Positions 5,121 to 64,000 are shown, counted from the first letter of the stretch. The stretch: 64,000 bases of DNA from Pseudomonadota bacterium (GCA_041163625.1 JBEARB010000330.1:10194-74193); one strand, 5' to 3'. The notes: generated by a model not told the origin, from the sequence alone. Program-made: numbers and translations.

Positions 5121-6700
5121 GCCGCGCCCCCTTCGGCCGCCGCGGCGGCGTGCGCGAGCGCGTCGCGGTAGGCCGCGACCTCACGCTCGAGCGCTTCCAA
5201 CTCGGCCTGGCCCGGCGCGGACTGCGCCAGCCAGTTGGCGGCCGTACGCAGTCGCACCAGCGAGAGCGCGCGCCCCATCGCCACGATCGTCTCGAACAGG
5301 CCCGGCGCCGCGGTGCGGCCCGTCAGGGCGACGCGGACGGCCATGAAGCCGTCACCGACGCCGACTCCGGCGGCCTCGGTCGACTCGCGCAAGGCGGCTT
5401 CGACGGCGACCTCGTCGAAATCGGCGAGACCCTCGAGGCGCGCGATCACGTCCTCGAAAAAAGCCTTCGAGGCGCGCGCGCTCAACCGCACGGCCTTCTT
5501 CTTCTTGCTGCCGCAGCCCACCAGCAGGTGCCGCGAGTCGGCGCCGTAGGGCACGCTGGCGCCGTAGAAGGGGCCGGCGTGGTGCGGCCAATCACCGAGG
5601 CTGCCGACGCGCTCGGCGACCAGGCGGGCGACGTGGACGTCGCGGCCGTCCTCGCGGAAGTAGTCGGCGAAACGAGCAGCCAGCGCGTCGGGCGCCATCG
5701 CCCGGATCCACAGCCCGTTGATGTGCTGCAGGCGATCGAGGTCGAAGACCGGGCCGCCGAGCGAGATCCGGCCGAAGTCGAGCGCGGCGCTGAACGCCTC
5801 GAAGTCGAAGAACTCGGCCTCGTCGGGCATCGAGAAGCCGAGCATGCCGAGGAAGTTCAGGAACGCCTCGGGCAGGATGCCGGCGCGCTGGTAGAACTCG
5901 AGGCTGGTCGGGTTCTTGCGCTTGCTGATCTTGCTGCGGTCCGCGTTGCGCAGCAGCGGCATGTGCACGAAGACCGGCGCTTCCCAGCCAAACGCGTCGT
6001 AGAGTTCGAGGTGCTTGGGCGTCGAGTTCAACCACTCCTCGGCCCGGATCACGTGGGTGATCTGCATCAGGTGATCGTCGACGACGTTGGCGAGATGGTA
6101 GGTCGGCAGACCGTCGCTCTTGAGCAAGATCTGGTCGTCGATGCGACCGTTCTCGTAACGCACCTCGCCGCGCAGCGCGTCGGGCACGATGGTCTCGCCA
6201 TCCTGCGGCATCGCCAGGCGCACGACGTGGGCCTCGCCAGCGGCGGCGCGAGCGGCGGAATCGGCGGCGTCGAGGTGGCGGCAATGCCCGTCGTAGCGCC
6301 AATCGTCGCCGGCGGCCTTTTGCGCCGCGCGCATCGCATCGAGGCGCTCGGCGGTGCAGAAGCAACGGTAGGCGCGACCCTTGGCGATCAGCAGGTCGGC
6401 GTGCTCGGCGTAGATCGTGGCGCGCTCGGATTGACGATAGGGGCCGTAGGGGCCGCCGACGTCGGGGCCCTCGTCCCACTGCAGCCCGCACCAACCGAGG
6501 CTGCGCAGGATCGCGGCCTCGCTGGCGGCGGTCGAGCGCTTCTGGTCGGTGTCCTCGATGCGGAGCACGAACTGGCCGCCGTGCTGCCGTGCGAAGGCGA
6601 GGTTGAAGAGCGCGATGTAGGCGGTGCCCACGTGGGGGTCGCCGGTCGGGCTCGGGGCGATGCGAACGCGCACGGGATGGCGAGGCGTCGGGATGCTCAA
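5117..6700 (-). CDS. gltX: glutamate--tRNA ligase
   Basis: Class-I synthetase HIGH region (VRVRIAPSPTGDPHVGTAY) and a KISKR (KMSKS-type) motif. The likely start is TTG at 6698-6700 with AGGAG 5 nt upstream. The track's first M at 6754 would add a non-conserved extension. Confidence 0.85.
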   Translation of the reverse strand: MSIPTPRHPVRVRIAPSPTGDPHVGTAYIALFNLAFARQHGGQFVLRIEDTDQKRSTAASEAAILRSLGWCGLQWDEGPDVGGPYGPYRQSERATIYAEHADLLIAKGRAYRCFCTAERLDAMRAAQKAAGDDWRYDGHCRHLDAADSAARAAAGEAHVVRLAMPQDGETIVPDALRGEVRYENGRIDDQILLKSDGLPTYHLANVVDDHLMQITHVIRAEEWLNSTPKHLELYDAFGWEAPVFVHMPLLRNADRSKISKRKNPTSLEFYQRAGILPEAFLNFLGMLGFSMPDEAEFFDFEAFSAALDFGRISLGGPVFDLDRLQHINGLWIRAMAPDALAARFADYFREDGRDVHVARLVAERVGSLGDWPHHAGPFYGASVPYGADSRHLLVGCGSKKKKAVRLSARASKAFFEDVIARLEGLADFDEVAVEAALRESTEAAGVGVGDGFMAVRVALTGRTAAPGLFETIVAMGRALSLVRLRTAANWLAQSAPGQAELEALEREVAAYRDALAHAAAAAEGGAA

Positions 6701-6778
6701 GACGGCTCCTGTAGGGAAGTTCACGGCACCGGTGGGTGCCGCGGAACGGCGCAAGCTACGGGGACGCCCCGGGCAGGG

Positions 6779-7471
6779 TCAAGAGCCGGCAGCGGCGCGG
6801 GGATCTGCGTCGGCGTCGGCGCGCATCTGCACGACACGGGCGCGATCGTCGCCGGTCACGGGGCCGGCCGGGGTGGCGAGCAGCGCCTCGAGATCGGCGC
6901 TCGCGCGGTCGAGATCGTCGTTGCAGAGCAGGCCCCACGGCACGCCCGCGTCGAGTTGTTCGAGCACCCCGTGCAGCTCGCGGCGGGCGGTGCGCAGACG
7001 GCGCTGCAGCGTCTCGGGCGTCTCGCTACCGCGTCGCTCGAGTCGACCGCAGAGCGCTGCCCAATCGGGCGGCGTGATGAAGACCAACCGGCAGCGCGCC
7101 TGGTAGGCGTCGAAGAGCGCGGTGGCACCGACGATGTCGACGTCGAACAGCACGTCGCGACCGGCGCGCAAGTGGTGCTCGACGGCAGCGTAGGAGGTGC
7201 CGTAGAGGTTGCCGTGCACCTCGGCCCACTCCACGAAGCCGCCGGCGTCGATCAGCGCCTCGAAGGTCTCGCGGTCGACGAAGGTGTAGTCGACGCCGTG
7301 CTGCTCACCGCGGCGCATGGCGCGGGTGGTGTGGCTGACGGAGAAGGCACGCTGCTCCGGCTTCGCGTCGATCAGCCGATGCGCCAGCGTGGTCTTGCCC
7401 GCGCCGGCAGGGCCGACCAGGACCACCAGACGGCCCTTTCGCGCGTGCTCGGTCGTCGCCGTCTGCCGCAT
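6779..7471 (-). CDS. gmk: guanylate kinase
   Basis: P-loop GPAGAGKTT, and sequence matching the guanylate kinase family over the full 230 aa. Confidence 0.85.
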   Translation of the reverse strand: MRQTATTEHARKGRLVVLVGPAGAGKTTLAHRLIDAKPEQRAFSVSHTTRAMRRGEQHGVDYTFVDRETFEALIDAGGFVEWAEVHGNLYGTSYAAVEHHLRAGRDVLFDVDIVGATALFDAYQARCRLVFITPPDWAALCGRLERRGSETPETLQRRLRTARRELHGVLEQLDAGVPWGLLCNDDLDRASADLEALLATPAGPVTGDDRARVVQMRADADADPRAAAGS

Positions 7472-12718: not shown

Positions 12719-13396
12719 CTACTTGGCGGCCGGCGCCTCACCGGTCGGAACCTCGGCCTTCGGGGCCTCGGGAGCCGGAGCGGCGGCGGCGGCCGGAGCC
12801 TCGCCAGCCGGGGCGGCGGCCGGAGCCTCGCCAGCCGGAGCGCCGGCCGGAGCCTCACCGCCCGGAGCGGCGCCCGGCGGCGGAGCCATCGGGCGGGCCT
12901 TCATCATGGCCTGCATGAACTTGCCCATCAGGGGAGCAAGCTTGCCGCGGGCGTACTCCTCGATCTTCTTCTTGTCCTCGGGCGAGAGGGCCTTGTTGAT
13001 GGCCTCACCCTCGGCCTTCTCCTTCTCGGCGAACTCCTTGAACTTCTCGCCGATGGCCTTGATCTTCTCCTGATCACCGGCAGCGGCCTCGATCTCGGTC
13101 GCCATGGTCTCCATGCGGCCAGCCATGCGATCGACCAGGGCCTTGGCCTTGGTCAGGTTCTCGCTGTCGGCGCCGCCCTCGGCGGGCTTGGCCTCGCCCT
13201 CGGCAGGCTTGGCCTCGCCCTCGGCAGGCTTGGCCTCACCCTCGGCAGGCTTGGCCTCGTCGCCCTTGGCGGCTTCGACCTTGGCCGCGGCCAGCTTGGC
13301 CTCTTCCTTCTTGTTGCCACAGGCGGTCGCGCCGACGGCGCAGATCGCGGCGACGGTCGCCACGCGCTTCCCGATGTTCCACATCTCTCGCTCCAT
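12719..13396 (-). CDS. low-complexity Ala/Glu/Lys/Pro-repeat lipoprotein
   Basis: Lipoprotein signal MWNIGKRVATVAAICAVGATAC; the start is either M40 or M44 of the track ORF. Four tandem AEGEAKP units and three C-terminal GEAPAxAPA units. Confidence 0.55.
   Translation of the reverse strand: MEREMWNIGKRVATVAAICAVGATACGNKKEEAKLAAAKVEAAKGDEAKPAEGEAKPAEGEAKPAEGEAKPAEGGADSENLTKAKALVDRMAGRMETMATEIEAAAGDQEKIKAIGEKFKEFAEKEKAEGEAINKALSPEDKKKIEEYARGKLAPLMGKFMQAMMKARPMAPPPGAAPGGEAPAGAPAGEAPAAAPAGEAPAAAAAPAPEAPKAEVPTGEAPAAK
12788..12870. repeat. three tandem ~27-nt units (ggccggagcctcgccagccgg...)
   Basis: Direct repeats in the DNA encoding the PAGEAPA units at the 3' end of the lipoprotein gene. Confidence 0.5.
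13180..13263. repeat. four tandem 21-nt units (ggcttggcctcgccctcggca)
   Basis: Near-perfect direct repeats encoding the AEGEAKP units on the minus strand. Confidence 0.6.
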
Positions 13397-13605
13397 GATC
13401 CTGCCCCGCCAACGGGGACAATGACGCCGACGCTCGATGCGAGCGGCGACAGGGTTCGGTCGGTCCGACAGGACCGGCCGGCGTACGATCCGGCCTGGGC
13501 GCGGGAAGCGCAAGTCCGGGGGCGCCTCTTTGTGAAGCGGGGCGGGGGGATGGCCCCCCGCCCCGCATCTCGGCTCACGGGTGCGGCGATTGCCGCACCG
13601 TCAAG

Positions 13606-13892
13606 CTACTTGGCGCCTTCGCCAGCGGCGGCCGGAGCGGCCTCGGCCGGCTTGGCCTCACCCTCGGCAGCGGCCGGAGCGGCCTCGGCCGGCTTGGCCT
13701 CCTCGGCCGGCTTGGCCTCGCCCTCGGCAGCCTTCTCTTCGGCTTGGCCTCGCCCTCGGCGGCGGCCGGAGCGGCCTCCTCCTTCTTCTCCTCGGCGGCG
13801 GCGACCGGCTCGGCCTTCTTGCCGCAGCCGCTGACGGTGAACGCGAGACCAACGGCCACGGCGACCGCGGCGAAACGCTTGAACGTGAACAT
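13606..13892 (-). pseudogene. paralogous repeat lipoprotein with an apparent 4-nt deletion frameshift
   Basis: The N-terminus (MFTFKRFAAVAVAVGLAFTVSGCGKK...AEGEAKP) lies in the frame of ORF 13575..13934. The expected continuation (AEEKAAEGEAKPAEEAKPAEAAPAAAEGEAKPAEAAPAAAGEGAK*) lies in the frame of ORF 13606..13989. Around 13738-13747 the motif 'ttcggccggcttggcctc' appears as 'ttcggcttggcctc'. The alternative read-through gives an implausible Pro/Arg tail. Confidence 0.4.
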
Positions 13893-14179
13893 ATTCAGAC
13901 TCCTGATGGGCGCGCCGCGGCAAACCACTCTCACCCCCGTCCTCGCCTCGGGACCGGTCGACGGAGGGCTCCCTTTCCCCCGGCGACACTATTGGCCTTC
14001 GGCACGCTGTGGCGCGACCTTCCCATCTTGGTAGAAGAGCGGTCCTCGCCGGATGCTAGGTGCCTTGCGCGGAGCGGTCAACAGCGGAGATCGCCAAGCC
14101 TGCAAGCGAATCTCGGGACGGGTTGCGCGCGGCCGGCGACCGTGACAAGCAAGCGACCCGATCCGCCCAGGAGCCACAC

Positions 14180-16195
14180 ATGCCCGCCTTCGATCTCGTC
14201 GCGCCCTTCCCGCCCGCGGGCGACCAGCCCGCCGCCATCGACGAGTTGATGCGCGGCCTGCAGCGCGGCGACCACTGGCAGGTCCTGCTCGGCGTCACGG
14301 GCTCGGGCAAGACCTTCACGATGGCCAACGTCATCGCCGCCTCGCAGCGACCGACGCTGGTGCTCGCGCCCAACAAGACCCTCGCGGCGCAGCTCCACGC
14401 CGAGCTCAAGAGCTTCCTGCCACACAACGCGGTCGAGTACTTCGTCAGCTATTACGACTACTACCAGCCCGAAGCCTATATCCCCTCAACAGACACCTAC
14501 ATCGAGAAAGACGCGCTCATCAACGAAGAGATCGACCGGATGCGGCACGCCGCGACCTTCGCCCTGCTCGAGCGGCGAGACGTCGTCATCGTCGCTTCGG
14601 TCTCCTGCATCTATGGTCTCGGCGCGCCGGTCGACTACTTGGCGATGCGGCTCGGTCTCGAGGTCGGGCAGGAGATCGGTCGACGCAAGCTGCTCGAACG
14701 TCTGGTCGAGATGCAATACGAGCGCAACGAGGTCGAGCTGACGCGCGGTCATTTCCGCGTCCGCGGCGACGTCATCGACGTGGTGCCGATCGGCGAGGAC
14801 GCCGAGGCCGTGCGTATCGCGCTCTGGGGCGACGAGATCGAGTCGCTCGAAATCATCGACCCGCTGCGTGGGCGCGTCCTGCGCAAGGTCGAGCGCGTGC
14901 ACATCTACCCGAGCTCGCACTTCGTGACGCCGGCGGAGGTGGTGGCGCGCGCACGCGAGACCATCGCCGTCGAGTTGCGCGAGCGATTGCAGGAGCTGCG
15001 CGAGGGGGGCCGCTTGCTGGAGGCCCAGCGCCTCGAGCAACGCACGATGTTCGACCTCGAGGCGTTGATGACGCGTGGATTCTGCCGCGGCATCGAGAAC
15101 TATTCGCGCCACCTGACCGGCCAGCAGCCCGGAGAGCCGCCACCGACCTTGCTCGACTACTTCCCCGACGATTGGCTCCTGATGATCGACGAGAGCCACG
15201 TCACGGTCTCGCAGGTCGCGGCGATGTTCCGCGGCGACCGCGCGCGCAAGGAGGTATTGGTCGGGCACGGCTTCCGGCTCCCCTCGGCGCTGGACAACCG
15301 TCCGCTGCGGATCGAGGAGTTCCTCGAGCGCGTGCGGCAGGGCGTGCTGATTTCGGCGACGCCGGGCGATTGGGAGCTCGAGCAGACCGGCGGCGTCGTG
15401 GTCGAGCAGGTGGTTCGCCCGACGGGGCTGCTGGATCCGGTGATCGAGGTGCGTCCGGTCGGCAGCCAGGTCGACGACTTGCTCGGAGAGATCCGCCTCC
15501 GCGCCGAGCGCGACGAGCGCGTCCTGGTCACGACGCTGACCAAGCGGATGGCCGAGAACCTGACCGAATACTACGCCGACCTGGGCGTGCGCGTGCGCTA
15601 CATGCACAGCGATATCGACACGCTCGAGCGCGTCGAACTGCTGCGCGGCCTGCGCGCCGGCGACTTCGACGTGCTGGTCGGTATCAACCTGTTGCGGGAA
15701 GGATTGGATCTACCCGAGGTCAGCCTGGTGGCGGTGCTCGACGCGGACAAGGAAGGCTTCCTGCGCTCGCGACGGAGCCTGATCCAGACCATCGGCCGCG
15801 CCGCCCGCAACGCCGAGGGCCGCGTCATCCTGTACGCCGACCGCATCACCGGCTCGATGCGCGAGGCGATCGACGAGACCGAACGCCGCCGCACGATCCA
15901 GGCGGCCCGCAACGCCGAACTCGGCATCGTGCCCAAGACGGTTCGCAAGGCGATCCACGGCACCGAGTTGCTGCAGGGCGCGAGTCGGACCGCTCACGAC
16001 GGCGGACCGCTCAGCGAGCAGGCGCTGCTGGAATCGGACGATCTCGCGACCCTGGACCGCAAAGACCTCGAGCGCCGCATCCAGGGCCTGCAGGCCGAGA
16101 TGAAGGCCGCGGCCGGAGCCCTGGACTTCGAGCGCGCGGCTGGGCTGCGCGACGAGATCCGCGACCTGCAGAAGCTGCTGCTCGCGCTCTCGTGA
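14180..16195 (+). CDS. uvrB: excinuclease ABC subunit B
   Basis: Start at MPAFDLV with AGGAG 7 nt upstream. Helicase motifs ([12 protein letters not shown]) and the UvrB C-terminal domain ([17 protein letters not shown]). 671 aa. Confidence 0.9.
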
Positions 16196-16223
16196 ACCGG
16201 CGAAGCCTCGGCGCCGGAGGGCT

Positions 16224-17684
16224 TCAGTCGACCCCGTCGATCTGCTCGAGGTCGAGGACCTCGGCGTCGAGGTAGTCGTCGATGACGATGTCGGGCGGCG
16301 CGCGGTCGCGGACGGCGACGATCTCGTCTTCGCCGAAGACCTCGAGATAGCGCGACCAGACGCCGGCACAGATGCGGTCGAAGGCACAGCCGCCACAGAG
16401 GTGCGCCGGCTTGACGCGTTCGGGGTCGGCGACCGCGCCGTCGGCGAAATCACCGTAGATGTCGAAGTGGTCGATGTATTCGGGGATCACGCACGGTGGC
16501 AGCGCGGCCGATTGGCTCGTCTCCACCCGCATGCCGGTGCGCCGGCCGAGCTCGAACGCCTCGGCGAAATAGGGCCGGCAATCGGTGAACGAGAGCGCCC
16601 ATTGCGGATTGAGCCAGGCGTTGCCGCGCGGCATCGCGTAACTGAACTGGAGGCGATCCAGCCGAGGGCCCCAGCGCTCCCAGCACGCCTGCGCGAAAGC
16701 CGGGACGTGCGCGAGGTTGGGCCGCATCACGACGCACGTCACCTTGACGCGGAAGCCGAGCTCGACGGCGCGATCGATGGCGTGGAGCTTGGCCGCGAGC
16801 CGGCCGCTGTCGGGCCGCTCGCGCTCCGGGTCCGGCAGCGTCAGGCCGCGGGCGAAGCGCTCCGCCAGCGGCATCGCCGGGACGTCGTGCGCGGCAGTGA
16901 GCAGATCCGAGGCCCGCGCCTCGAACGCGTGCAGCGAGAAGCCGATGCCGAGGCGGTCGCGATAGGGCAGCAGCGCCTCGAGCGCGCCGGGTTCGGCCAT
17001 CCGCACGCCGTTGGTCTGCACGATGATGTCGCGGGCCCCTCGCGCCGCCGCCAATGCCACCATCTCGGGCAACGCCTTGAGCAGCGTCGGTTCGCCGCCC
17101 GAGAAGATCACCTGGCGCAAGGCGCCCGCGGGCAGCCGATCGAGGATCGTGCGCAGCTTCTGCTTGCTGGTGACGAGGTTGCTGTTGCCCTCGGTGGCGT
17201 TGCAGAACACGCAACTCTCGTCGCAATGATCGGTCACGCGCAGGTAGAGCTTCTTGCCGCTGGTGATCTCGAGGTAGGCCGACGCCGGCGGCGCACGGAA
17301 ATAGCGCTGATCGAGGTCGGCCGGGGAGAGGCCCGCCGACGCGGCGACGGTCTCGACGCGGCGCCCGACCTCGGCCAACAGCGCCGTCGCCATGCGGTCG
17401 AAGCCCTCGCCACGGTAGCTGACGTTCCAGCGCGGAGTGCGCAGGTAGGTGTCCTGCGTCGGGTCGTGGTGGCGCAGCAGCACGTGGAGATCCCAGGGCT
17501 CGCCGTCGCGCTCGACCTGCAGGCAGATATGGTCGCCGTCGTGCGTCCAGCCGACGCAGCGCACGCGACCGACGTCGTCGCCGGCGCGCAGGTCGGCGGG
17601 CGCCGCGATCTCGTCGACGAAGCGGCTCAGGCGCGGGATGGCATCGGGATCCAGCGCCAGTACCGGTTTGGCGAGTCGCGACAT
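16224..17684 (-). CDS. radical SAM / SPASM-twitch-type enzyme with a ~130-aa N-terminal extension
   Basis: Radical-SAM cluster CDESCVFC followed by a GGEPTL motif. C-terminal Cys cluster (HLCGGCAFDRICAGVW). The N-terminal ~130 aa has no recognisable motif. Confidence 0.75.
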   Translation of the reverse strand: MSRLAKPVLALDPDAIPRLSRFVDEIAAPADLRAGDDVGRVRCVGWTHDGDHICLQVERDGEPWDLHVLLRHHDPTQDTYLRTPRWNVSYRGEGFDRMATALLAEVGRRVETVAASAGLSPADLDQRYFRAPPASAYLEITSGKKLYLRVTDHCDESCVFCNATEGNSNLVTSKQKLRTILDRLPAGALRQVIFSGGEPTLLKALPEMVALAAARGARDIIVQTNGVRMAEPGALEALLPYRDRLGIGFSLHAFEARASDLLTAAHDVPAMPLAERFARGLTLPDPERERPDSGRLAAKLHAIDRAVELGFRVKVTCVVMRPNLAHVPAFAQACWERWGPRLDRLQFSYAMPRGNAWLNPQWALSFTDCRPYFAEAFELGRRTGMRVETSQSAALPPCVIPEYIDHFDIYGDFADGAVADPERVKPAHLCGGCAFDRICAGVWSRYLEVFGEDEIVAVRDRAPPDIVIDDYLDAEVLDLEQIDGVD

Positions 17685-17767
17685 GAGCGAACGCTACCGA
17701 CCGGCTCGCGCCGCCGCAACCACGGGTCGCGCGAGGCGGTGCCCCAGACGGGAGGAGGACGCGACCG

Positions 17768-20542
17768 TCATCGCCGGACGGCGAACCAACTGGTGGGTCG
17801 AGCCGGCCCCAAGCGCACCCGGCGCAACAGCAGATCCAGCAGCAGCAGCGCGATGGCAGCGGCCACCAGCGCCGCCCAGAGCGGCTGCCACGTTCGGGTC
17901 GTGGCCTGCCCGCGCTCCCGCCAATCGGCCGGTTTGGCGGCATTCTGACCGCCGGTCGACTGAACCAACGCCTGCAGGCCGACGGCTGCACCGCGCGCGA
18001 TGCGGAGCTCGTCGGGGTACGGCCGCACGGCAGTCGCGCGTCCGCGCAGCATCACCGGCTTCTCCGGCGCGGCGCGCAACTCGGTGAGGACGTCGTAGGG
18101 ACCGAAGGCGCTCATCGAGACCGCGGCCTCGTAGCGACCCAGCGCGACCTCCTGCAGTCGAATCGCACGCGGCGCGCCATCAGGTGCACGAACCGTGGCC
18201 TCCGCGAGCAGCCCGCCGACGTGCTGATCGTCGACGATGGCGTCCAAAGCGATCCGCATCCGCTCGTCTTCCCGCGCGAGACGGACGCGGACCTCACCGG
18301 CCAAATCCTCGCGTTGCAGGTCACGCACGAGCTGGCGCGCGAGCACGGCGTAGCCCGGCCAATCGATCCAATCCTGCGCCCAGCGGTTTTTCAGGTCGCT
18401 GGTCCAGACCGAGACCTTGCCCAGGCCGAGACGCCACCGCACCAAGAGCGGCTGGCCGGTCGAGAGGCGCAAGATCTCCTCGGCGCCCCGCTTGACCTTG
18501 CTCGCCAGGAAGCCGCGCAGCGCCGGGGCCCGCGTGACGTCGAAGCCGCGCAACAGCTCGACGCGGCCCAATCCCGGGGCGAGTCGGGCGCGGACGCGCT
18601 TCTCGACCACCGTCTCGCCGCTGATCTCCTTGGTCTCGCGGACGAAGATGCGAGGCAGCGTCTCGGGTCGGTCGGTGAAATACGAGCGGCCGCCGCCGCG
18701 GTCGGCAATGGATTCGAGCATCGAGCGGTCGACCTCGGCACCGACGCCGACGGTCGTGACCGTCACGCCCGAGCGCCGCATCTGCCGGACGAGCGCGTCG
18801 ATGCCGTTGCGCGGCGCCTGGCCGTCCGAGAGCAAGATCACGTGCTTGACCTTGGCCCGCACGCGCTCGAGCTCCGCGGCGGCCATCGCGAGGGCCGGGT
18901 AGATATTGGTGCCGCCGCTGGCCGAGATGCTGCCGATGCCGGTGGCAATGCGATAGCGGTTGCCGGCGCGCTGCAGGCTGACAACGCGGCGCGGGGCGTT
19001 GTCGAAGGCGACCACGCCGATGCGATCCTCTTGGCCGAGCGCCTCGGCCGTCGCGCGTGCCGCTTCCTTGGCGAGTTCCATCTTCTCGCCCTGCATGGAG
19101 CCGGAGCGATCGAGCACCAGCATCATCGCGATCGTGGGCTGCTCGACGGCCGAATCGACCTCCATCCGCACCGGCAGCACGTGCTTGTCGAGCCAGGAGC
19201 CCTGCCAGCCACCCGAGCCGAGCGCGTCCTCACCGCCGACCATCAACAAGCCGCCGCCCTCTTCGACGTAGCGTCCGAGCGCGCGTTGCTCGGGGTCGGG
19301 CACGAGCGGGACGCCGGCGGGCGAGACGCGCGCGAGGTCCGACAAGATCACGGTCTGGTAGCGGGCCAAGGCGGCAGCGTCGCGGGGCAACGCGTCGGGG
19401 CCACGCAGGGTGACCTCGAAGTCGTCGGCCAGCGCGCTCGCGAGCTGCCGCCCCATCGCGGGGTTGCCCTCGACGAGCAGCACGCTCGGGCGCGCGGAGA
19501 CCACGACGCGCACGCGCATCGCGTTGTTGCTGGGGAAGCGGTCGCCGCCCGCCACCAAGGCGCAGTGCGCGCGCAGCTCGTGGGCACCTGCCTCGCGGAT
19601 GCGGGCCTCGCCGAGCTCGACGTCGCGGCGACCGGCACCGAGTTCGGCGGCGATGGGACCGAGGTGGACACCCTCGCCGTCGAGCTCGCAGCGCACCGTG
19701 GCCGCCGCCGTGCTGCGCAGCCGCAGCCGCACGGGGAAGGGCAGGTTCGCGCGCACCCGCTCGGGGACGTGCACCGCCTCGACGAGAAACTCCGCCGGCT
19801 GCTGCAGGGGGCCGAGGTCGCCGCGGTGCACACGGGCGCCGGCGCGACGCATCAGGGGGGCCAGACGCTGGGCGTCGCCGCGCGTCTCGGCGCCGTCGGA
19901 CCAGACGACGACGTGGGCGACGCGTCCCGGATCGAGGTGGCCCAGCGCGAGATCGAGCGCCGCCTCGAGGTCGGTGGCGCCCTGGCTCTGCGGATCGCGG
20001 GCGACCTGCAGCGGCGGCAGCGGCGTCGCTGCGTCCGCGTCGTCGGTGGGCGTCGGGGGCCACGGCAGCCGACGTGCGCCGGCGTCGAAGGCGATGACGT
20101 GCACCGACGCTGCCTCGCCCTCGGGGTCGTCGCGATGCGCCTGTACGTCGGCGGTGATCGCCGTCAGCGCCTGCGCCAGCGCCGCGGGCGGCATCGACTC
20201 GCTTCGGTCCACCAGATGCACGATGGATGCTTGCCGCGGTCGCTCCTGCCGGCTGCGCGGCTCGGTCGCGGCGAGCACCAGCGCCGCGATCGCGAGCATT
20301 CGCGCCACTGCGCCGAACGCGGCCTGCCAGCGCGGCAGGTCGCCGATCGAACCGAGCGCCAGCAGCGGCACCAGCCAGCATGCCAGCAGCCCCCACAGCC
20401 GCTCGGGGTGCGCCAACTCGACGCCACCCGCCGCGAGCGCGCCGAGCCACGCCGGCGCTTGCTCGCGCGCCCACAGCGCGAGGCCGGCTCCGAGCGCGAG
20501 CCAGACGAGCCCGCTGACTACGGTGGCGACGCGCCCGCTCAC
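17768..20542 (-). CDS. BatB-like membrane protein with two VWA domains
   Basis: The GTG start at 20540-20542 overlaps the upstream stop (GTGA). N-terminal TM helices. Two MIDAS-containing VWA domains (VHLVDRSESM; LVLDRSGSMQGEKM). C-terminal TM helix. Confidence 0.7.
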   Translation of the reverse strand: MSGRVATVVSGLVWLALGAGLALWAREQAPAWLGALAAGGVELAHPERLWGLLACWLVPLLALGSIGDLPRWQAAFGAVARMLAIAALVLAATEPRSRQERPRQASIVHLVDRSESMPPAALAQALTAITADVQAHRDDPEGEAASVHVIAFDAGARRLPWPPTPTDDADAATPLPPLQVARDPQSQGATDLEAALDLALGHLDPGRVAHVVVWSDGAETRGDAQRLAPLMRRAGARVHRGDLGPLQQPAEFLVEAVHVPERVRANLPFPVRLRLRSTAAATVRCELDGEGVHLGPIAAELGAGRRDVELGEARIREAGAHELRAHCALVAGGDRFPSNNAMRVRVVVSARPSVLLVEGNPAMGRQLASALADDFEVTLRGPDALPRDAAALARYQTVILSDLARVSPAGVPLVPDPEQRALGRYVEEGGGLLMVGGEDALGSGGWQGSWLDKHVLPVRMEVDSAVEQPTIAMMLVLDRSGSMQGEKMELAKEAARATAEALGQEDRIGVVAFDNAPRRVVSLQRAGNRYRIATGIGSISASGGTNIYPALAMAAAELERVRAKVKHVILLSDGQAPRNGIDALVRQMRRSGVTVTTVGVGAEVDRSMLESIADRGGGRSYFTDRPETLPRIFVRETKEISGETVVEKRVRARLAPGLGRVELLRGFDVTRAPALRGFLASKVKRGAEEILRLSTGQPLLVRWRLGLGKVSVWTSDLKNRWAQDWIDWPGYAVLARQLVRDLQREDLAGEVRVRLAREDERMRIALDAIVDDQHVGGLLAEATVRAPDGAPRAIRLQEVALGRYEAAVSMSAFGPYDVLTELRAAPEKPVMLRGRATAVRPYPDELRIARGAAVGLQALVQSTGGQNAAKPADWRERGQATTRTWQPLWAALVAAAIALLLLDLLLRRVRLGPARPTSWFAVRR

Positions 20543-22539
20543 AGCGTCCTCCGACGTTGGTAGAGCGCCCACTCGAGCAGCAACAACCCGGCCACGGCGA
20601 CGACCAGGATGGTCCACGCCGGCCACGGCGAGCGCGGCGCGGCGTCGTGCGCGGCGCGGGCGCGGGGAGCCCAGGCGGCCGCGTCGGGCGAGACGCGACT
20701 CGGCTGCTCGGTGGCCGGCAGGATCGTCGGTCGCGCGATCTCGAAGCCTTCATGGCTGCGCCAGACGTGGATGCCCTGCACTTCGCTGCTCGCGAGCAGC
20801 GCGTCGTCGCTCGCGAAGGCGGCGCGCGCGGGCGTCCCGGGCTCGGTCCAGGTCCAGCGCTCGGCTGCGACCGGAAGCCCCAGCGCCCAGGGCCGACCGA
20901 CCTCGAGCGGCCCGACGACGGCCTCGTCTTCGCCCGCCAGCCACTCGACGGCGTTGCTCACCAGCAGCGGCAGGAAGTAGCGGCCGCCGAGGTCGGTCTC
21001 CAGCAGGTCCAACCCGAAGACCAGGCCGCGCACGCCGGCGTCCGTAGCGTAGGCCAAGGCGACGCCACCGCGCTCGCGCAGGAGCACCCGCGCACCGGTC
21101 GGCGGCGTCAACGGACGGACTTGGTCGACGTTGCCGTCCTGCAGCGAGAGACCGCGGACCACGGGATGTTCGTCGTCGCCCACCGCCAGCTCGCCGGCGC
21201 TGCGGGGCTCGGCGTCGCCGGCGGCGCCGTGCTGTCCGGCGCGCAAATCGAAGCGCCACGTGGGCGTGCCGTCGGGCGCCGGGGCGTCGACTTGGTCCAG
21301 GACCACGACGTCGATGCCGTGACCGAGCCGGCGGCTGCGGGCGAAATTGGCGGGCTGGTAGGCGTCGGGCGCAAGCCGGCGGACGTCGAAGCCGTCGTTG
21401 GCCAGGAGCGCGGCCTCGAGGAAGAGGTTGCCGCGGCCGACGAGCAGCACGCCCACCTTGCGGCGACGCGCCGCGACACCGAAGCCCCAATCGTCGTAGG
21501 GGGCGACGTCGCGCCAAGCGGCGCCGTCGGCGGGGCGGACCTGCACCGCGAAGCGACCGGGGGCCAGCGTGACGTCGGCGAACGCGACGCTCTGCACGGC
21601 CCGCGGTGCCAGTTCGACGACCTGCTCGGCGACGACGCTCTCGGCGCGCGCGAAGTCCACCGGGCCCTGGCCTTCGCGATCGGCCGAGAGCAGCACGCGC
21701 AGCCGGGTGGCGACGCCGCGATCGTTGCGGATCCGCGCCGTCACCACGCCGCGACCGGGGTCGGCTTCGGCAGCGCGGACACCGACGCGCTCGACGGCGG
21801 CGTTGTCGACGAGGCGGCCTTCGGCGGCGGCTTCGGGGCCCACGCGCCGCACGCGAATCGGGACGCCTCGCATCGACTCGGGCACGACGAAGCCGGTGGT
21901 ACTCGGGCCGCCGTCGGTGACCACGACCACGCGCGGCATCGTGCGCTCACGGACCGCATCGACCGCCGCTCGCAGCGCCCGCTCGAGGTCCAGGCCGGCA
22001 TCGGTGCTGCGCAGACCGGCGATCGCTGCGCGGACGGTCTGCGCCTCGTCACTCCAGGGGGCCTGTGTCCGCGGCGCGGCGGCGGCGGCGACGACCAGGA
22101 AGCGTTCGCGCGGCAACGCGTCGGCGACGATCTCGTCCAGCGCTTCCTGCGCGAGCTCGAGCCGGGTGCGCGGGAGCAGACCGGGCCCGGGATCGCCATC
22201 GACGGTCGCCATCGTCGCGGAGACGTCGACCAGCAGCACGGTATGGGTCGCCGGCGGCTGCTGGCGCTCCCGCAGCGCGCGCAGCCCCAGCGGCCCTTCG
22301 GCCAACGCGGCGAGCAGCCCGCTCGTGCAGGTCGCGAGGAAGAGCCACGAAAAGAACCGGCGCCATCGACGCCCGATGCGGCGCGACTCGGCGCGCTCGA
22401 GTACGGTGCGCCAGAGCGCGCCGAAGGGCACCGCCACCTGGCGACGGCGCGGCTCGAGCAGATAGAGCAGCGTCAGCACGGCGAGCGCGCCTGCCGCCCA
22501 CGGCCACCAGGCCTGCAGGGTATCGAAGGGGGCGATCAC
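20539..22539 (-). CDS. BatA-like VWA-domain membrane protein
   Basis: The GTG start overlaps the DUF58 stop (GTGA). N-terminal double-TM domain typical of the aerotolerance BatA N-terminus. VWA MIDAS (VLLVDVSATM). C-terminal TM helix. Confidence 0.7.
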   Translation of the reverse strand: MIAPFDTLQAWWPWAAGALAVLTLLYLLEPRRRQVAVPFGALWRTVLERAESRRIGRRWRRFFSWLFLATCTSGLLAALAEGPLGLRALRERQQPPATHTVLLVDVSATMATVDGDPGPGLLPRTRLELAQEALDEIVADALPRERFLVVAAAAAPRTQAPWSDEAQTVRAAIAGLRSTDAGLDLERALRAAVDAVRERTMPRVVVVTDGGPSTTGFVVPESMRGVPIRVRRVGPEAAAEGRLVDNAAVERVGVRAAEADPGRGVVTARIRNDRGVATRLRVLLSADREGQGPVDFARAESVVAEQVVELAPRAVQSVAFADVTLAPGRFAVQVRPADGAAWRDVAPYDDWGFGVAARRRKVGVLLVGRGNLFLEAALLANDGFDVRRLAPDAYQPANFARSRRLGHGIDVVVLDQVDAPAPDGTPTWRFDLRAGQHGAAGDAEPRSAGELAVGDDEHPVVRGLSLQDGNVDQVRPLTPPTGARVLLRERGGVALAYATDAGVRGLVFGLDLLETDLGGRYFLPLLVSNAVEWLAGEDEAVVGPLEVGRPWALGLPVAAERWTWTEPGTPARAAFASDDALLASSEVQGIHVWRSHEGFEIARPTILPATEQPSRVSPDAAAWAPRARAAHDAAPRSPWPAWTILVVAVAGLLLLEWALYQRRRTL

Positions 22540-23468
22540 CCGAGGAAGCCTCCGAGGCGGAAGATCTTCATCACGACCTCGTCGAAGGGGGTGGCGACGT
22601 CGACCCGTAGCGCGCGGGCGCCGACCTCGCGCGCCGCGGATTCCACGCGCGCCGAGAGCTCCTCGAAGACCTCCCGGTAGGTGGCGACGATCTCGGGCGT
22701 GAGCCAGATCTCCTGCCGCTCGCCGGTCTCGACGTCGACCAGCGTCAGGTCGCCGTAGATCTCGGCGCGGAACAGCCGCTCGTCGGCCAGCTGCAGCACC
22801 ATCGGCTCGTACCCGCGGGCGGCGAGGTCGCGCAGGCCGTCGCCGAGGCCGTCCGGGTCGTAGAGGTCGGAGATCAGCACGACGAGCCCCCGCCGCGGCT
22901 TGAAGCGCAGGAAGTCGCGGATCGAGTCGTGGATCGCGGTGCGACCGGCGGGCTCGAGCGCCGAGAGGGTACGCAGGATGCGGAAGAGCTGCGCGCGGCC
23001 GCGCACCGGGCGCTCGGGGCGCGCGCGACCGTCCGCCATCGGCGCGACCGAGACACGGTCGAGGTTGCCGAGCGCGATGTAGGCGAGCGCGGCGGTGATC
23101 TGCAAGGCACGATCGAACAGGCTCGGTTCACCGGGCGGCGCCATCGCCATGGACGGGCTGCGGTCGAGCAGGAAATAGACCGAGAGGTCCTCTTCCTCCT
23201 CGTATTGGCGCAGGAGCATCCGTTTGGTGCGACCGTAGACCTTCCAATCGAGGTGGCGCAGGTCGTCGCCGGGGCTGTAGTCGCGATGGTCGGCGAACTC
23301 GATGCCGCCGCCGATCTTCTTGCTGCGCCGCGCCGCCCGCTGCCCCGAGGAGGCCATCCGGCGCGCGAGCAAGGTCAGGTGCTCGATGCGGCGCAGGAAC
23401 GCCGCGTCGAAGAGATCGTCGCGGATCCCGGCGTGCGCGCCCCCGGCGGCGGGCCGCGACTCAGCCAC
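22536..23468 (-). CDS. DUF58-domain protein (MoxR-associated)
   Basis: DUF58 signature (ADHRDYSPGDDLRHLDWKVYGRT). 8-nt overlap with the moxR stop. Confidence 0.8.
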   Translation of the reverse strand: MAESRPAAGGAHAGIRDDLFDAAFLRRIEHLTLLARRMASSGQRAARRSKKIGGGIEFADHRDYSPGDDLRHLDWKVYGRTKRMLLRQYEEEEDLSVYFLLDRSPSMAMAPPGEPSLFDRALQITAALAYIALGNLDRVSVAPMADGRARPERPVRGRAQLFRILRTLSALEPAGRTAIHDSIRDFLRFKPRRGLVVLISDLYDPDGLGDGLRDLAARGYEPMVLQLADERLFRAEIYGDLTLVDVETGERQEIWLTPEIVATYREVFEELSARVESAAREVGARALRVDVATPFDEVVMKIFRLGGFLG

Positions 23469-24507
23469 CGGCGACCTGCTTGCCGACCTCTTGCAGGATG
23501 GCGTCGAGGACCTTGTCGCTGGCGACGCCGTCGGCTTCGGCGTCGAAGTTCAGCAGCACGCGATGGCGCAGGACCGGGCGCGCGAGCGCCTGCACGTCTT
23601 CGCGCGCGGCGTTGGGGCGACCGTCGAAGAGCGCGCGCATCTTCGCGCCCAAGATCAGCGCCTGCACCGCACGCGGGCTCGCGCCGGCGCGCAGGTATTG
23701 GCGGGCGGCGTCGGCGCCACCGTGGGTGGCCTCGACCACACGAATGGCGAGGTCGACGACGTGGTGGGCGATCGGCACGCCGAGCGCCAGCCGCCGCACG
23801 GCCAGGATATCGTCGCCGTGCAAGATCGCGCCGATCTCGTGCTGCTCGGCCTGCAGCGTGCGCGCGACGATCTCGTGCAGGTCCTGCCGGCTCGGGAAGG
23901 GCACGTCGAGCTTGAACATGAAGCGGTCGAGCTGCGCCTCGGGCAACGGGTAGGTGCCTTCCATCTCCAGCGGGTTCTGCGTCGCCATCACGAAGAAGGG
24001 CTTGGGCAGTTGGAGCGTCTCGCGCCCGATGGTCACGCGGCCCTCGGCCATCGCCTCGAGCAACGCCGATTGGGTCTTGGGCGTGGCGCGGTTGACCTCG
24101 TCGGCCAGCAGCAAGTTGGTGAAGACCGGGCCCTTGCGGAGTTCCAGACCACGGCCGCCGCGGCCGTCCTCGGCCAGCATGTGCGTGCCGACGATATCGG
24201 TCGGCATCAGGTCCGGGGTGAACTGCACGCGCGAGAAGTCGAGATCGACCGCCGCGGCGAGCGTACGCACGAGCATGGTCTTGCCGACACCCGGTACGCC
24301 CTCGAGCAAGATGTGGCCGCCGCAGAACAGGCCGATCAGCGCCCCCTCGACCACGGCGTCCTGCCCGACGATGACCTCGCCGACACCGGCGCGCAGGGCG
24401 CCCAAGCGGTCCCGGACCCAGGCGAGCGCGTCGGCGAGGCGAGCCTCGTCGGCGAGCGCCGCTTCGATGTCGGGGCGCGCCCCTGTCGAATCCGAAGCCT
24501 TGGTCAT
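23461..24507 (-). CDS. MoxR-family AAA+ ATPase
   Basis: Start at MTKASDST; the ATG overlaps the upstream stop (ATGA). Walker A (GVPGVGKT), Walker B (LLADEVNRA) and the MoxR motif ATQNP. Confidence 0.85.
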   Translation of the reverse strand: MTKASDSTGARPDIEAALADEARLADALAWVRDRLGALRAGVGEVIVGQDAVVEGALIGLFCGGHILLEGVPGVGKTMLVRTLAAAVDLDFSRVQFTPDLMPTDIVGTHMLAEDGRGGRGLELRKGPVFTNLLLADEVNRATPKTQSALLEAMAEGRVTIGRETLQLPKPFFVMATQNPLEMEGTYPLPEAQLDRFMFKLDVPFPSRQDLHEIVARTLQAEQHEIGAILHGDDILAVRRLALGVPIAHHVVDLAIRVVEATHGGADAARQYLRAGASPRAVQALILGAKMRALFDGRPNAAREDVQALARPVLRHRVLLNFDAEADGVASDKVLDAILQEVGKQVAGG

Positions 24508-26828
24508 CGTGTGCTCCTCTGCGTTTGCGCCGCGCGCGGTCGGATCAGCTCGTAGTAGCGGCGAACCATCGCCTTGCGTCCCGGCGGCAGGGACTCCTTC
24601 TCGAGCATCTCCTGCGCTACTTCCGCATATTCCGAATAGACCTCGCGCCACCCGGTGCGGGCGAAGCCCTTGCGAGCCGCGTCGACGAAGACGTCCTTGG
24701 TGCTCGGCCCTTCGCCGTGCTTGCCGCGAACCTGCTCGGTCCGGGCCGTGCCCTTGCGGGCGCCCTTGCCCTCGAGGTCGCGGCCGTCCTCGTGGCCGTA
24801 GGTCTTGCCGCGCCCACCGTCGCCGCCGCCCTGCTGCTGGAGCTGTTGGCCATCGGCCATCTGCTGCATCCGGCGGTCGTCGGAGAGCTCGCCCTGGCCG
24901 AGCCGCGTGGAGCGCTTGCGGCCCGAGCCTCCGGGCTGCGAGGGGCCACCGGACTCGCCCTGGCCGGCGGCTTGCCGGCGCCGCGCGGCGGCGCGTTCCT
25001 TGGCGGCCGCCTCGGCAGCCGCTCGGCCCTGCTTGCCGGCGCCGTCGCGTGGCTCTCCGCGCTGGCCGGACTGCGCGTCGCGTCCCTCTTCCTCGCCTTG
25101 CTTTCCGCCGCCCTCCTCGCCGCGCTGGCCCTTGGACTGCTGACCGCGGGCTCGGTCGGCAAAGTCGCGGCGCTGCGAACGCCCGCGCTCGCCGGCGCGG
25201 CGGAGGGCTTGGCGCAGGTCGCGCAGCCGTCCGTCGCCGATCCGGCGCGCCTGGCGCTCGCGTTGGCCCTGGCCCTGTCGACGCATCTCCTGCGCCGCCC
25301 GCTGCATCTGCTGGCGGACCTGTCCGGCGAGCGCCTTGCGCTGCTGCTGGCGTCGCGCCTCGCCCTCGGCACCGCCGCCCTTCTGTCGATCGATGCGGCT
25401 ACGCTCCTGCTGCATCCGACGCATCTCGTCGGCCGCTTGGCGAGCACCGCGCTCGAGACGCTGCAGCTGCCGTCCGGCCCCGGCGACGTCGCCGTGCTCG
25501 CGGCGCAACGCGTCCATCGCCCGGCGGGCGTTGTGCAGTCGGCGGTTCTCGGCCGGGGTCAGGCCGCCCTGTTGCTGGCGCTTCTGCTCGAGCCGGCGAA
25601 TGCGATCGGCGAGTTGCTGGAACTGCTTGGGCACCTCCTTGGCCCCGAGCGCTTTGGCCAGCTTCTCCGCCGCCTTGACCCAACCCTCGAGCTCCTTGTC
25701 GCTCATGTCGCGGTCGGCGAGCTTCTCGAGCGCCTTGGCCATCAGACCGAGGTCGCCCTTCTTGGCGGCGCGCTCGAGTTCGTCGCGCGTGGCGCCCTCG
25801 GGGGCCGCCTCGATCGCCTTCTCGACCGCCTTGGAGAGCGCCTTCTGTACCGCCCGATCGCGATCACGCTCGGCCGCGGCGGCGGCCTCGCGCGAGACGG
25901 GCTGATTCGGATCGCCGCTGGGATCACCGCTGCGAGCCTGCTCGGGTGGCTCGGGGCGCTCGGCCTCGAGCTCCGCGAGCTTGGCGAGCGCTGCGCGGCG
26001 ATCGAGCTTGCCGCTCTCGACGTCCTCGAGGACGCCTTTGACCCGATGCAGCCACGCGCGGGTCGGTGCGTCATCGACCTGGGCGGCCACGTCGGCGATC
26101 AGCTCGGCGTCCGCGCGCAGCAACTCGAGGGCATCGGCGCCCAGCAGCTCGGCCGCGACGACGACGCCGGCGTGGCCTGGGGGTAGGTCGAGGAGCAGGC
26201 CGTCGGCCCGCTGGCCGTCGATGCGGTCGCCGAGGAGCCACACCTGCGGCACGACCAGCGCCAGCATCGCGGCGACGGCGCCGGCAACGACCCAGCCGAG
26301 CCCGGCAGGCCGCGGCATCGGCAGCAGCGCGACGAGATCGAGCCCGGCAGCGGCGGACTCGGCGTGTCGCGCTTGCAGCATGGCGAACGGATCGTCGCGC
26401 CCCTGGCGCGCCAAGTCGAGCGCCGTGCTGATGTGGTCACCGCCACCGACCCGCAGATCCAACGCTCCCGCAGCGGCCAACCAACCCGGTCGGCGCCCCA
26501 TCGCCCAGGCGACGCCGAGCAGGCCCGCGATCGCGAGCACCAGCGCGGCCCCCACATCCCAGGCAGCCGGCCACAGCCCTGCCCGGGCCGCGAGCGCCCA
26601 GCCCGCGTAGGCCAGCATGGCCGGGGCCGCGACGTACGCGAGGCGGCCCAGCGCGCCGGCCCACCAGAGCCGACGTCGGGCGCGGCGCACCACGTCGATC
26701 ACCGCCGAGACCCGCGCGCGGCGCGGTGCCGACAGATGGACGGGACGCAGCGTGGCGGGAAGTGGGGTGGTGGTGGCTCGGCTCAACGCGATCTCCGGGC
26801 CGACGCAGCCGGCGTGGGGGCAACCCAC
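24504..26828 (-). CDS. membrane protein with a long R/Q/E/G-rich charged low-complexity region (hypothetical)
   Basis: First gene of the Bat-like string. About 4 N-terminal TM helices. A ~450-aa charged low-complexity region (RRQQQRK..., QGQGQRERQARR...). A conserved-looking C-terminus (TGWREVYSEYAEVAQEMLEKE). Start uncertain. Confidence 0.5.
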   Translation of the reverse strand: MGCPHAGCVGPEIALSRATTTPLPATLRPVHLSAPRRARVSAVIDVVRRARRRLWWAGALGRLAYVAAPAMLAYAGWALAARAGLWPAAWDVGAALVLAIAGLLGVAWAMGRRPGWLAAAGALDLRVGGGDHISTALDLARQGRDDPFAMLQARHAESAAAGLDLVALLPMPRPAGLGWVVAGAVAAMLALVVPQVWLLGDRIDGQRADGLLLDLPPGHAGVVVAAELLGADALELLRADAELIADVAAQVDDAPTRAWLHRVKGVLEDVESGKLDRRAALAKLAELEAERPEPPEQARSGDPSGDPNQPVSREAAAAAERDRDRAVQKALSKAVEKAIEAAPEGATRDELERAAKKGDLGLMAKALEKLADRDMSDKELEGWVKAAEKLAKALGAKEVPKQFQQLADRIRRLEQKRQQQGGLTPAENRRLHNARRAMDALRREHGDVAGAGRQLQRLERGARQAADEMRRMQQERSRIDRQKGGGAEGEARRQQQRKALAGQVRQQMQRAAQEMRRQGQGQRERQARRIGDGRLRDLRQALRRAGERGRSQRRDFADRARGQQSKGQRGEEGGGKQGEEEGRDAQSGQRGEPRDGAGKQGRAAAEAAAKERAAARRRQAAGQGESGGPSQPGGSGRKRSTRLGQGELSDDRRMQQMADGQQLQQQGGGDGGRGKTYGHEDGRDLEGKGARKGTARTEQVRGKHGEGPSTKDVFVDAARKGFARTGWREVYSEYAEVAQEMLEKESLPPGRKAMVRRYYELIRPRAAQTQRSTR

Positions 26829-29140: not shown

Positions 29141-29169
29141 CGCTCGGGAGCATGCGCGCCCGGGCGACG

Positions 29170-30960: not shown

Positions 30961-30979
30961 GAGTGGCCTCCGCGCCCGC

Positions 30980-47210: not shown

Positions 47211-64000
<16,790 letters not shown>

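Follow-up and report, generated by a model that had tools for sequence, protein, structure and literature searches.

Does a radical S-adenosylmethionine (SAM) enzyme that is encoded directly behind a MoxR/VWA operon serve that operon, or does it stand there through inherited gene order? The question is raised by a 64,000-nucleotide (nt) stretch of DNA from a Pseudomonadota bacterium (GCA_041163625.1 JBEARB010000330.1:10194-74193), referred to here at its full 64-kb length as the window, in which a radical SAM gene (16224-17684, minus strand) follows a co-directional string of MoxR, DUF58 and two VWA genes. A first-pass annotation had thought it plausible that the gene is coupled functionally to this string, with a protein of the system as substrate or with maturation of a metal site as its task. 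Our comparisons point to a stand-alone radical SAM enzyme that has its own promoter and a substrate encoded elsewhere, and for which the position behind MoxR is inherited gene order, a reading to which we give about an even chance.

That the gene is real can be said plainly. Its open reading frame (ORF) starts with ATG, encodes 486 amino acids (aa; numbered from Met = 1) and closes with a stop codon at 16224-16226, and its GC content at third codon positions (GC3) is 0.91 versus 0.71 overall, a value that in a region of ~71% GC marks a genuine coding frame; the plus-strand reading of the same interval gave no protein and was rejected. The only Pfam match is Radical_SAM (PF04055; aa 150-249, E 4.6e-14, 53.4 bits against a cut-off of 29.5), and the partial TIM-barrel core fold expected of the superfamily is present. 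The CX3CX2C motif, the GGEPTL motif and an extra C-terminal Cys cluster are all found in the protein, and on this point the first-pass annotation was right. Full-length orthologues form 43 clusters at 90% identity among 5.8 billion proteins and are 49-100% identical to the query, with source records naming them 'hypothetical protein', 'radical SAM protein' or 'MoaA/NifB/PqqE/SkfB family radical SAM enzyme'. The GTDB species set holds 18 loci from species-level metagenome-assembled genomes (MAGs) of lakes and the ocean, nearly all titled Myxococcales, Myxococcota or Deltaproteobacteria. Judged by these records, the family is small, uncharacterised and confined to uncultured aquatic Myxococcota. 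Three MAGs of 66-67% GC (L016, L017 and L020) carry the title 'uncultured Enterobacteriaceae bacterium' in what seems to be a taxonomic mislabelling, and two of them (L016 and L020) show Myxococcota-type synteny.

Evaluating the neighbourhoods of these orthologues revealed that the company the gene keeps is not constant. As the first-pass annotation had it, the gene shares its direction with the MoxR-DUF58-VWA-VWA string and is parted from it by 83 nt, a gap that ranges from 33 to 215 nt in orthologues, and on the other side a convergent uvrB ends 28 nt past the radical SAM stop codon. Besides the window, 8 of the 18 species-level loci (L010, L011, L012, L015, L016, L018, L020 and L027) proved in tblastn searches with the window's neighbours to have this arrangement, with the MoxR block on the upstream side and uvrB on the downstream side. 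Neither the MoxR block nor uvrB lies within ~10-kb flanks in L014, L017, L019, L022, L023 and L026, nor within the shorter flanks of L013, L021 and L025. Outside the MoxR context the orthologues occupy at least three mutually unrelated settings, with divergent hemC-hemD(-hemL), a triple DsbA-like protein, an SNase-like nuclease with a DEAD-box helicase, ABC-F, bPH_2 or unannotated genes as neighbours (hemC-hemD is divergent from the orthologue in L019, L023 and L025), and apart from the radical SAM gene itself no gene family is common to the different orthologue contexts. On a neighbour-joining tree with P0044 as its root, both main clades contain loci of the MoxR context, and the remaining contexts branch from within them, so that the MoxR/uvrB position is probably ancestral and the gene has probably moved away from it at least four times. 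A comparison of small ORFs (20-120 aa, within 1.5 kb of the gene) over 19 loci found none conserved, those that recurred being only out-of-frame shadows inside uvrB and the VWA gene, which agrees with the earlier remark that no precursor-peptide gene lies nearby.

The operon, for its part, is often found without the gene. Scanning metagenome contigs with an alignment of the VWA+GATase1_like protein gave 80 loci that we annotated, and a radical SAM gene lies downstream in only 3 of these (L068, L072 and L091), with none in the ~52 others that have at least 1.5 kb of downstream sequence. The clearest case is L076, where the VWA gene has a convergent uvrB as its immediate downstream neighbour and after that the window's downstream genes, such that the five-gene block is kept and the radical SAM gene is missing (identity to the window 56% for VWA, 76% for MoxR, 72% for DUF58 and 73% for uvrB). 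The VWA gene likewise leads straight into uvrB in L077 (64%) and L071 (46%), downstream of it in two further loci (L070 and L073, 52-57%) there is neither uvrB nor the radical SAM gene, and the gene is missing from all of the ~50 loci at 30-45% identity that keep the MoxR-DUF58-...-VWA layout and extend at least 1.5 kb downstream. Because the operon occurs without it in L076, L077, L071 and ~50 others, the operon is complete without the gene, and by this comparison the enzyme is not an integral component of the MoxR/VWA system; the constant co-occurrence and adjacency that would mark a component of a Bat-like MoxR/VWA operon were not seen. L076 and L013, the latter with a relocated copy of the gene, resemble one another in GC (0.672 and 0.674) and in their ERZ88-prefixed assembly names and may come from one genome, in which case the gene moved and the operon stayed put.

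A promoter-like element directly before the start codon suggests that the gene has a promoter of its own. A consensus sigma-70 scan over 15900-18300 gave nothing at threshold, and the element emerged from a looser TTGNNN-17/18-TANNNT search combined with conservation across orthologues. This pattern has four matches on both strands of the window (128 kb searched), or 3e-5 per position, and TANNNT alone occurs at ~1e-3 per position. TANNNT recurs at exactly -12 in L010 (TACGGT), L011 (TACGTT), L012 (TATCCT) and L015 (TAGCGT), and the relocated orthologue L014, away from the MoxR operon, carries TAGCTT at the same offset. No Shine-Dalgarno sequence precedes the ATG. We infer that in its clade the gene is transcribed from this promoter into a leaderless or near-leaderless mRNA. 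The element is missing from several 'short-clade' loci, L005 having GGGAG upstream instead, and in such loci read-through may matter. Between the VWA and radical SAM genes the scan of 15900-18300 found no intrinsic terminator, and the fold of the intergenic RNA is no more stable than that of shuffled sequences (z +0.5). A sigma-54-like TGGCAT in L003 and L020 was dropped, its -12 element being missing.

Two of the other pattern matches in the window also lie near ORF starts. One (TTGACC...TAGCAT, 14053-14081, minus strand) overlaps the annotated uvrB start on the opposite strand and lies upstream of the minus-strand ORFs 13575-13934 and 12719-13513, and the other (TTGACC...TAGCTT, 6753-6782, minus strand) ends right before the TTG start of the minus-strand ORF 5117-6754. 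Such placement of two of only four matches suggests that the pattern marks real promoters in the window's organism.

These observations weaken the proposed coupling. The first-pass annotation had itself said that an independent promoter and unrelated neighbours in orthologous loci would refute it, and this is largely what we find, with about half of the orthologue neighbourhoods unrelated, the operon standing without the gene in L076, L077, L071 and ~50 distant loci, and a conserved promoter-like element predicted at the start codon. The features on which the argument draws are collected in Table 1.

Table 1. Features of the radical SAM gene and of its neighbours, with positions counted from the first letter of the window.
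Feature	Position	Strand	Evidence or remark
Radical SAM gene	16224..17684	-	ORF list, translation, GC3 0.91, Pfam Radical_SAM E 4.6e-14, 43 full-length orthologue clusters
N-terminal alpha/beta domain, aa 1 to ~135	17280..17684	-	Conserved in all orthologues and in the wider 400-430 aa family
Radical SAM core, ~aa 140-350	16635..17267	-	Includes lineage-specific insert
C154-D-E-S-C158-V-F-C161, CX3CX2C motif for the SAM-binding [4Fe-4S] cluster	17202..17225	-	Sequence
G196-G-E-P-T-L201, GGE-type SAM-binding motif	17082..17099	-	Sequence
Four invariant cysteines, C398 (in PPC) and C430-x2-C433-x5-C439	16368..16493	-	Putative site of one auxiliary Fe-S cluster
Acidic C-terminal tail, DRxxP...IDDYxxxEVLDL	16227..16310	-	Conserved; orthologue alignment consensus
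Promoter-like element, TTGCGG-17 nt-TAGCGT	17691..17719	-	-10-like hexamer ends 6 nt before ATG
Intergenic spacer, VWA gene to radical SAM gene	17685..17767	-	83 nt
VWA + GATase1_like	17768-20626	-	Pfam; upstream neighbour
BatA-N + VWA_2	20539-22539	-	Pfam; upstream neighbour
DUF58	22536-23468	-	Pfam; upstream neighbour
MoxR AAA_3	23461-24651	-	Pfam; upstream neighbour
Unannotated 774-aa ORF	24504-26828	-	Upstream of MoxR; whole upstream block 17768..26828
uvrB	14060..16195	+	NCBIfam UvrB equivalog, 1036 bits; convergent syntenic neighbour

The upstream genes have exactly the architecture of Bat-like MoxR(AAA_3)-DUF58-BatA/BatB VWA operons. In about half of the lineage the radical SAM gene stands co-directionally behind the operon; the ~50 other Bat-like loci sampled have none, and we know of no radical SAM component described for Bat-type operons. 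As listed, the BatA-like and VWA/GATase1_like ORFs overlap by 88 nt (20539-20626) versus 4 nt in orthologues, so the annotated start of the latter is uncertain. Further upstream on the minus strand (27788-31104), a sigma-54 activator with an FHA domain (27788-29770) adjoins a Ser/Thr protein kinase (29170-31104), and these listed ORFs overlap as well. On the downstream side, the 28-nt spacer between the convergent stops (16196-16223) holds an imperfect GC-rich inverted repeat (GAAGCCTC...GAGGGCTTC) with no T-run, which could be a bidirectional terminator.

The protein itself has three parts, as do the other members of its family: an alpha/beta domain at the N-terminus, the radical SAM core, and a C-terminal domain rich in Cys. 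Within the core, the cysteines of HC154DESC158VFC161 are invariant in 29 aligned orthologues and kept in the wider family, and in the GGEPTL motif of the same orthologues G, G, E, P and L are invariant and T200 is replaced by Ser in one. An insert at ~aa 264-290 is lineage-specific and missing from the 'short' orthologues. Sequence matches in the PDB (Tes/GDGT-MAS, BlsE, SkfB, MoaA and viperin) are confined to the first ~90 residues of the core. For the N-terminal ~135 aa, Pfam gave no match at E<=1 and NCBIfam none at E<=10, so that this extension is as unfamiliar as it had seemed at first reading. They gave no confident fold match, the weak ones being lipid- or ligand-binding folds (SMP/TULIP, RseB/MucB, BPI and START-like), and a PqqD-like recognition element (RRE) of the kind found in maturases of ribosomally synthesized and post-translationally modified peptides (RiPPs) was sought in the domain and is absent. 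The domain profile does align with the N-termini of the wider family of 400-430 aa radical SAM proteins (hhalign probability 97.8%, E 6.8e-13).

SPASM/twitch enzymes (anSME, SuiB, CteB, SkfB, BtrN and MoaA) likewise combine the core with a Cys-rich C-terminal domain and are among the target's top fold matches, and the SPASM signature consists of seven Cys (CX9-15GX4C ... CX2CX5CX3C ... C) that bind two auxiliary clusters. In the target only C398, C430, C433 and C439 are invariant across the 29 orthologues, being conserved in the wider family too, and the last three (in CGGCAFDRIC) form CX2CX5C, with Trp instead of Cys at residue 443 and no Cys after residue 439. Conservation of C317 and C369 is only ~90% among orthologues, C369 being Ser in some. 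SPASM PF13186 gave no match at E<=1 on the C-terminal 208 aa, where there is no Pfam match at all; in NCBIfam, SPASM TIGR04085 gave none at E<=10, TIGR04053 matched marginally (22 residues, E 0.04), and the C-terminal match is to the last ~35 positions of the HxsC4 model only (E 1.7e-4) rather than to any SPASM/twitch model. The twitch model NF033640 does not match the target, and two distant relatives give sub-threshold matches only. The alignments of SkfB and BlsE, two of the top fold matches, lie mainly in the core. Membership of the SPASM family is ruled out by the absent PF13186 and TIGR04085 matches together with the incomplete Cys signature, such that of the earlier SPASM/twitch placement the extra C-terminal Cys cluster stands. 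The four cysteines would nevertheless be enough for one fully ligated auxiliary [4Fe-4S] cluster, which they are predicted to bind. Behind them runs the acidic tail, in which the full-length structure model predicts a short strand at 475-477.

Comparison with named families revealed HxsC (TIGR03977) and HxsC4 (NF038332), maturases of the His-Xaa-Ser (HXS) antiphage system, as the best-scoring ones for the target and, over their full length, for the wider family. In layout they resemble the target, with an extension at the N-terminus, the radical SAM cluster and, towards the C-terminus, another Cys site, and the HxsC4 model is matched at its end by the target's CxxC-containing C-terminal motif. 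The corresponding cysteines of HxsC are C105/C108 and C342/C345, and HxsB and HxsC mature the protein HxsA (PMC13128918). The target scores 56.6 bits against HxsC4 (cut-off 500), 46.1 against HxsC (267.9) and 47 against MoaA (284). None of the HXS partners (HxsB, HxsD and the HxS-repeat HxsA) is encoded in the window, where the neighbours are unrelated, no further radical SAM gene occurs and no ORF has four or more HxS motifs within 80 aa; membership of an HXS system is ruled out by these scores and by the missing partner genes. PADLOC returned no defence-system match and only generic similarity to the viperin core, and a defence role is accordingly unsupported by it. An anSME with a cognate sulfatase nearby, a case that the first-pass annotation had raised against its own proposal, is ruled out, with no anSME model among the best 25 of 34 NCBIfam matches and no sulfatase as neighbour. 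The tetraether lipid synthase GDGT-MAS/Tes (PDB 7TOL/7TOM) is the best PDB sequence match (E 3.5e-8) and the best Foldseek match, with a match that covers aa 148-232 only, a TM-score of 0.38 and 38 bits in NCBIfam against a cut-off of 450, and unlike that enzyme the target occurs in bacteria without an archaeal lipid context. By these membership tests the protein is neither SPASM, HxsC, anSME nor RiPP-RRE, and its family and architecture are undescribed in the radical SAM superfamily.

At E<1e-30 an exhaustive profile search yields 162 representatives, a number that rises to 1528 at E<1e-10, and the 400-430 aa proteins of the wider family have the motifs YRG, CNExCxFCN, GGEPTL, QTNG, PxC and CxxCx5CxGVWxxY in common. 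In all ten distant relatives tested HxsC and HxsC4 are the best or second-best models, always far below the cut-off, and in most of them the alignment spans most or all of the model. Among distant members of the superfamily, P0055 (1054 aa) and P0059 (1318 aa) carry 3-4 tandem Radical_SAM domains per polypeptide, the P0045 contig has a run of six radical SAM genes including one epimerase fusion and one B12-dependent enzyme, and an 855-aa ORF in L034 (8747-11314, plus strand, from a putative start) appears to be a fusion of a distant relative with an Asp/Arg beta-hydroxylase (PF05118). A paralogous family, P0203, is 26% identical to the target and was found in four loci (L148, 8001-9745; L151, 6001-7757; L152, 6001-7757; L153, 1412-3173). 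There a GAF-HD gene precedes the radical SAM gene, a MopE/TSP3 gene is inserted 2-7 nt upstream in two of the four, and a ~170-aa lipoprotein is in every case encoded right behind the radical SAM gene, the stop codon of the one overlapping the start codon of the other. This lipoprotein, with its signal peptide, lipobox Cys and several conserved Cys, is a candidate substrate of the paralogue, and no homologue of it is encoded in the window or in the orthologue loci.

Radical SAM clusters reductively cleave SAM to a 5'-deoxyadenosyl radical that abstracts hydrogen from a substrate. In the target the C154/C158/C161 cluster would bind and cleave SAM in this way, the resulting radical would take a hydrogen atom from the substrate, and an auxiliary [4Fe-4S] cluster on the four C-terminal cysteines would accept the second electron, as in oxidative or cross-linking reactions of the SPASM/twitch type, with the N-terminal domain presumably docking the substrate. 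For that substrate we would guess first at a protein or peptide encoded in another part of the genome; a small molecule or lipid comes close in likelihood. We lean slightly to the former because HxsB/HxsC mature HxsA, because SuiB, SkfB and anSME are among the top folds, and because the putative auxiliary site is fully Cys-ligated and the N-terminal module large. The latter stays close because the gene stands alone, because viperin, BlsE, MoaA, DesII and Tes are also neighbours, and because distant relatives are fused to GFO_IDH_MocA, methyltransferase or B12-radical SAM domains or, in one case, apparently to an Asp/Arg beta-hydroxylase domain. Under this scheme the gene order behind MoxR-DUF58-VWA-VWA would be ancestral in the Myxococcota lineage, and the gene would have moved away several times.

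A rival explanation, in line with the first-pass annotation, is a dedicated maturase of the adjacent MoxR/VWA system, co-transcribed with it, that modifies the VWA, DUF58 or 774-aa protein or matures a metal site. For this speak the shared direction across an 83-nt gap with no terminator-like structure, the same and so probably ancestral arrangement in the window and 8 species-level loci over both main clades, the nearest named relatives (HxsC) that mature a protein, and a radical SAM effector noted by Aravind's group in another class of vWA-MoxR systems, the FtsH ternary conflict systems (PMC7159879). A full-text search linking radical SAM, MoxR and von Willebrand gave only that one paper. 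Against such a maturase, the system here is of the classical AAA_3 MoxR/DUF58/BatA type rather than a ternary conflict system; about half of the orthologous loci have unrelated neighbours, the VWA gene runs directly into uvrB in L076, L077 and L071, ~50 distant operons go without the gene, and when the gene came into other surroundings in L014, its conserved promoter-like element before the start codon went along. Weighing these, we consider such a maturase unlikely, and we think it improbable that the enzyme founds a new class of radical SAM maturases whose hitherto undescribed N-terminal domain recognises, and whose core modifies, a component of the Bat-type MoxR/VWA system such as the VWA or 774-aa protein. 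An enzyme acting on a small molecule, sugar, cofactor or lipid, with a housekeeping or secondary-metabolic role in this lineage, is in our view somewhat unlikely. It would account for a gene that occurs singly, in varied surroundings and without a partner or peptide gene, and it is in keeping with top structural and sequence neighbours that include viperin, BlsE, MoaA, DesII, MqnE and GDGT-MAS/Tes, with distant members fused to a GFO_IDH_MocA oxidoreductase, a methyltransferase or a B12-radical SAM domain or lying beside an epimerase fusion, with the lipid- and ligand-binding character of the weak N-domain fold matches, and with the divergent hemC-hemD in L019, L023 and L025.

Secreted Cys-/Asp-rich repeat proteins of the MopE/TSP3 type, modified before export as by anSME or HxsB/C, are a very improbable target. 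In L014, L017 and L019 giant MopE-repeat genes do occur no more than 10 kb away from the orthologue, one is present in the window, and a MopE/TSP3 gene stands next to the P0203 paralogue in two of its loci; such a gene is, however, absent from the other two paralogue loci and from most orthologue flanks, repeat proteins of this kind are probably simply abundant in these genomes, and the constant partner of the paralogue is the ~170-aa lipoprotein, which has no homologue here. The window's giant ORF (47211-63596, minus strand) spans at least 5461 aa, of which 3000 were scanned and contain at least 24 MopE-type repeats (PF11617, a 'putative metal-binding motif') as well as a C-type lectin domain. 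A RiPP maturase whose precursor gene was missed would be in line with SuiB, SkfB and CteB as structural neighbours and with an N-terminal domain that sits where these carry the RRE; given the missing RRE and the small-ORF comparison we disfavour it as barely credible. A stand-alone enzyme with inherited adjacency has points against it as well. The MoxR operon may persist in genomes where the gene has been relocated, in which case lost adjacency does not mean a lost functional link; the short co-directional gaps, the want of a detectable terminator and the ancestral adjacency in both clades make read-through co-transcription and a functional link possible in those lineages; the promoter is a prediction from sequence only; and beyond a radical SAM enzyme with an extra Cys site, all that is said here of substrate and reaction is deduced from sequence and structural likeness.

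Many families of the radical SAM superfamily are still uncharacterised. If the gene encodes an orphan enzyme only, it would add one more such family, with an unassigned N-terminal domain and a reduced four-Cys auxiliary site that make up an architecture covered by no curated model. Were it the first of a new class of MoxR/VWA maturases, it would be the first radical SAM step tied to a widespread and poorly understood operon, as a lineage-specific add-on in aquatic Myxococcota. As matters stand, adjacency to MoxR/VWA should not serve to infer the enzyme's substrate, and the wider family of 162 representatives (E<1e-30), together with the P0203 paralogues and their translationally coupled Cys-containing lipoprotein, may offer easier routes to its chemistry.

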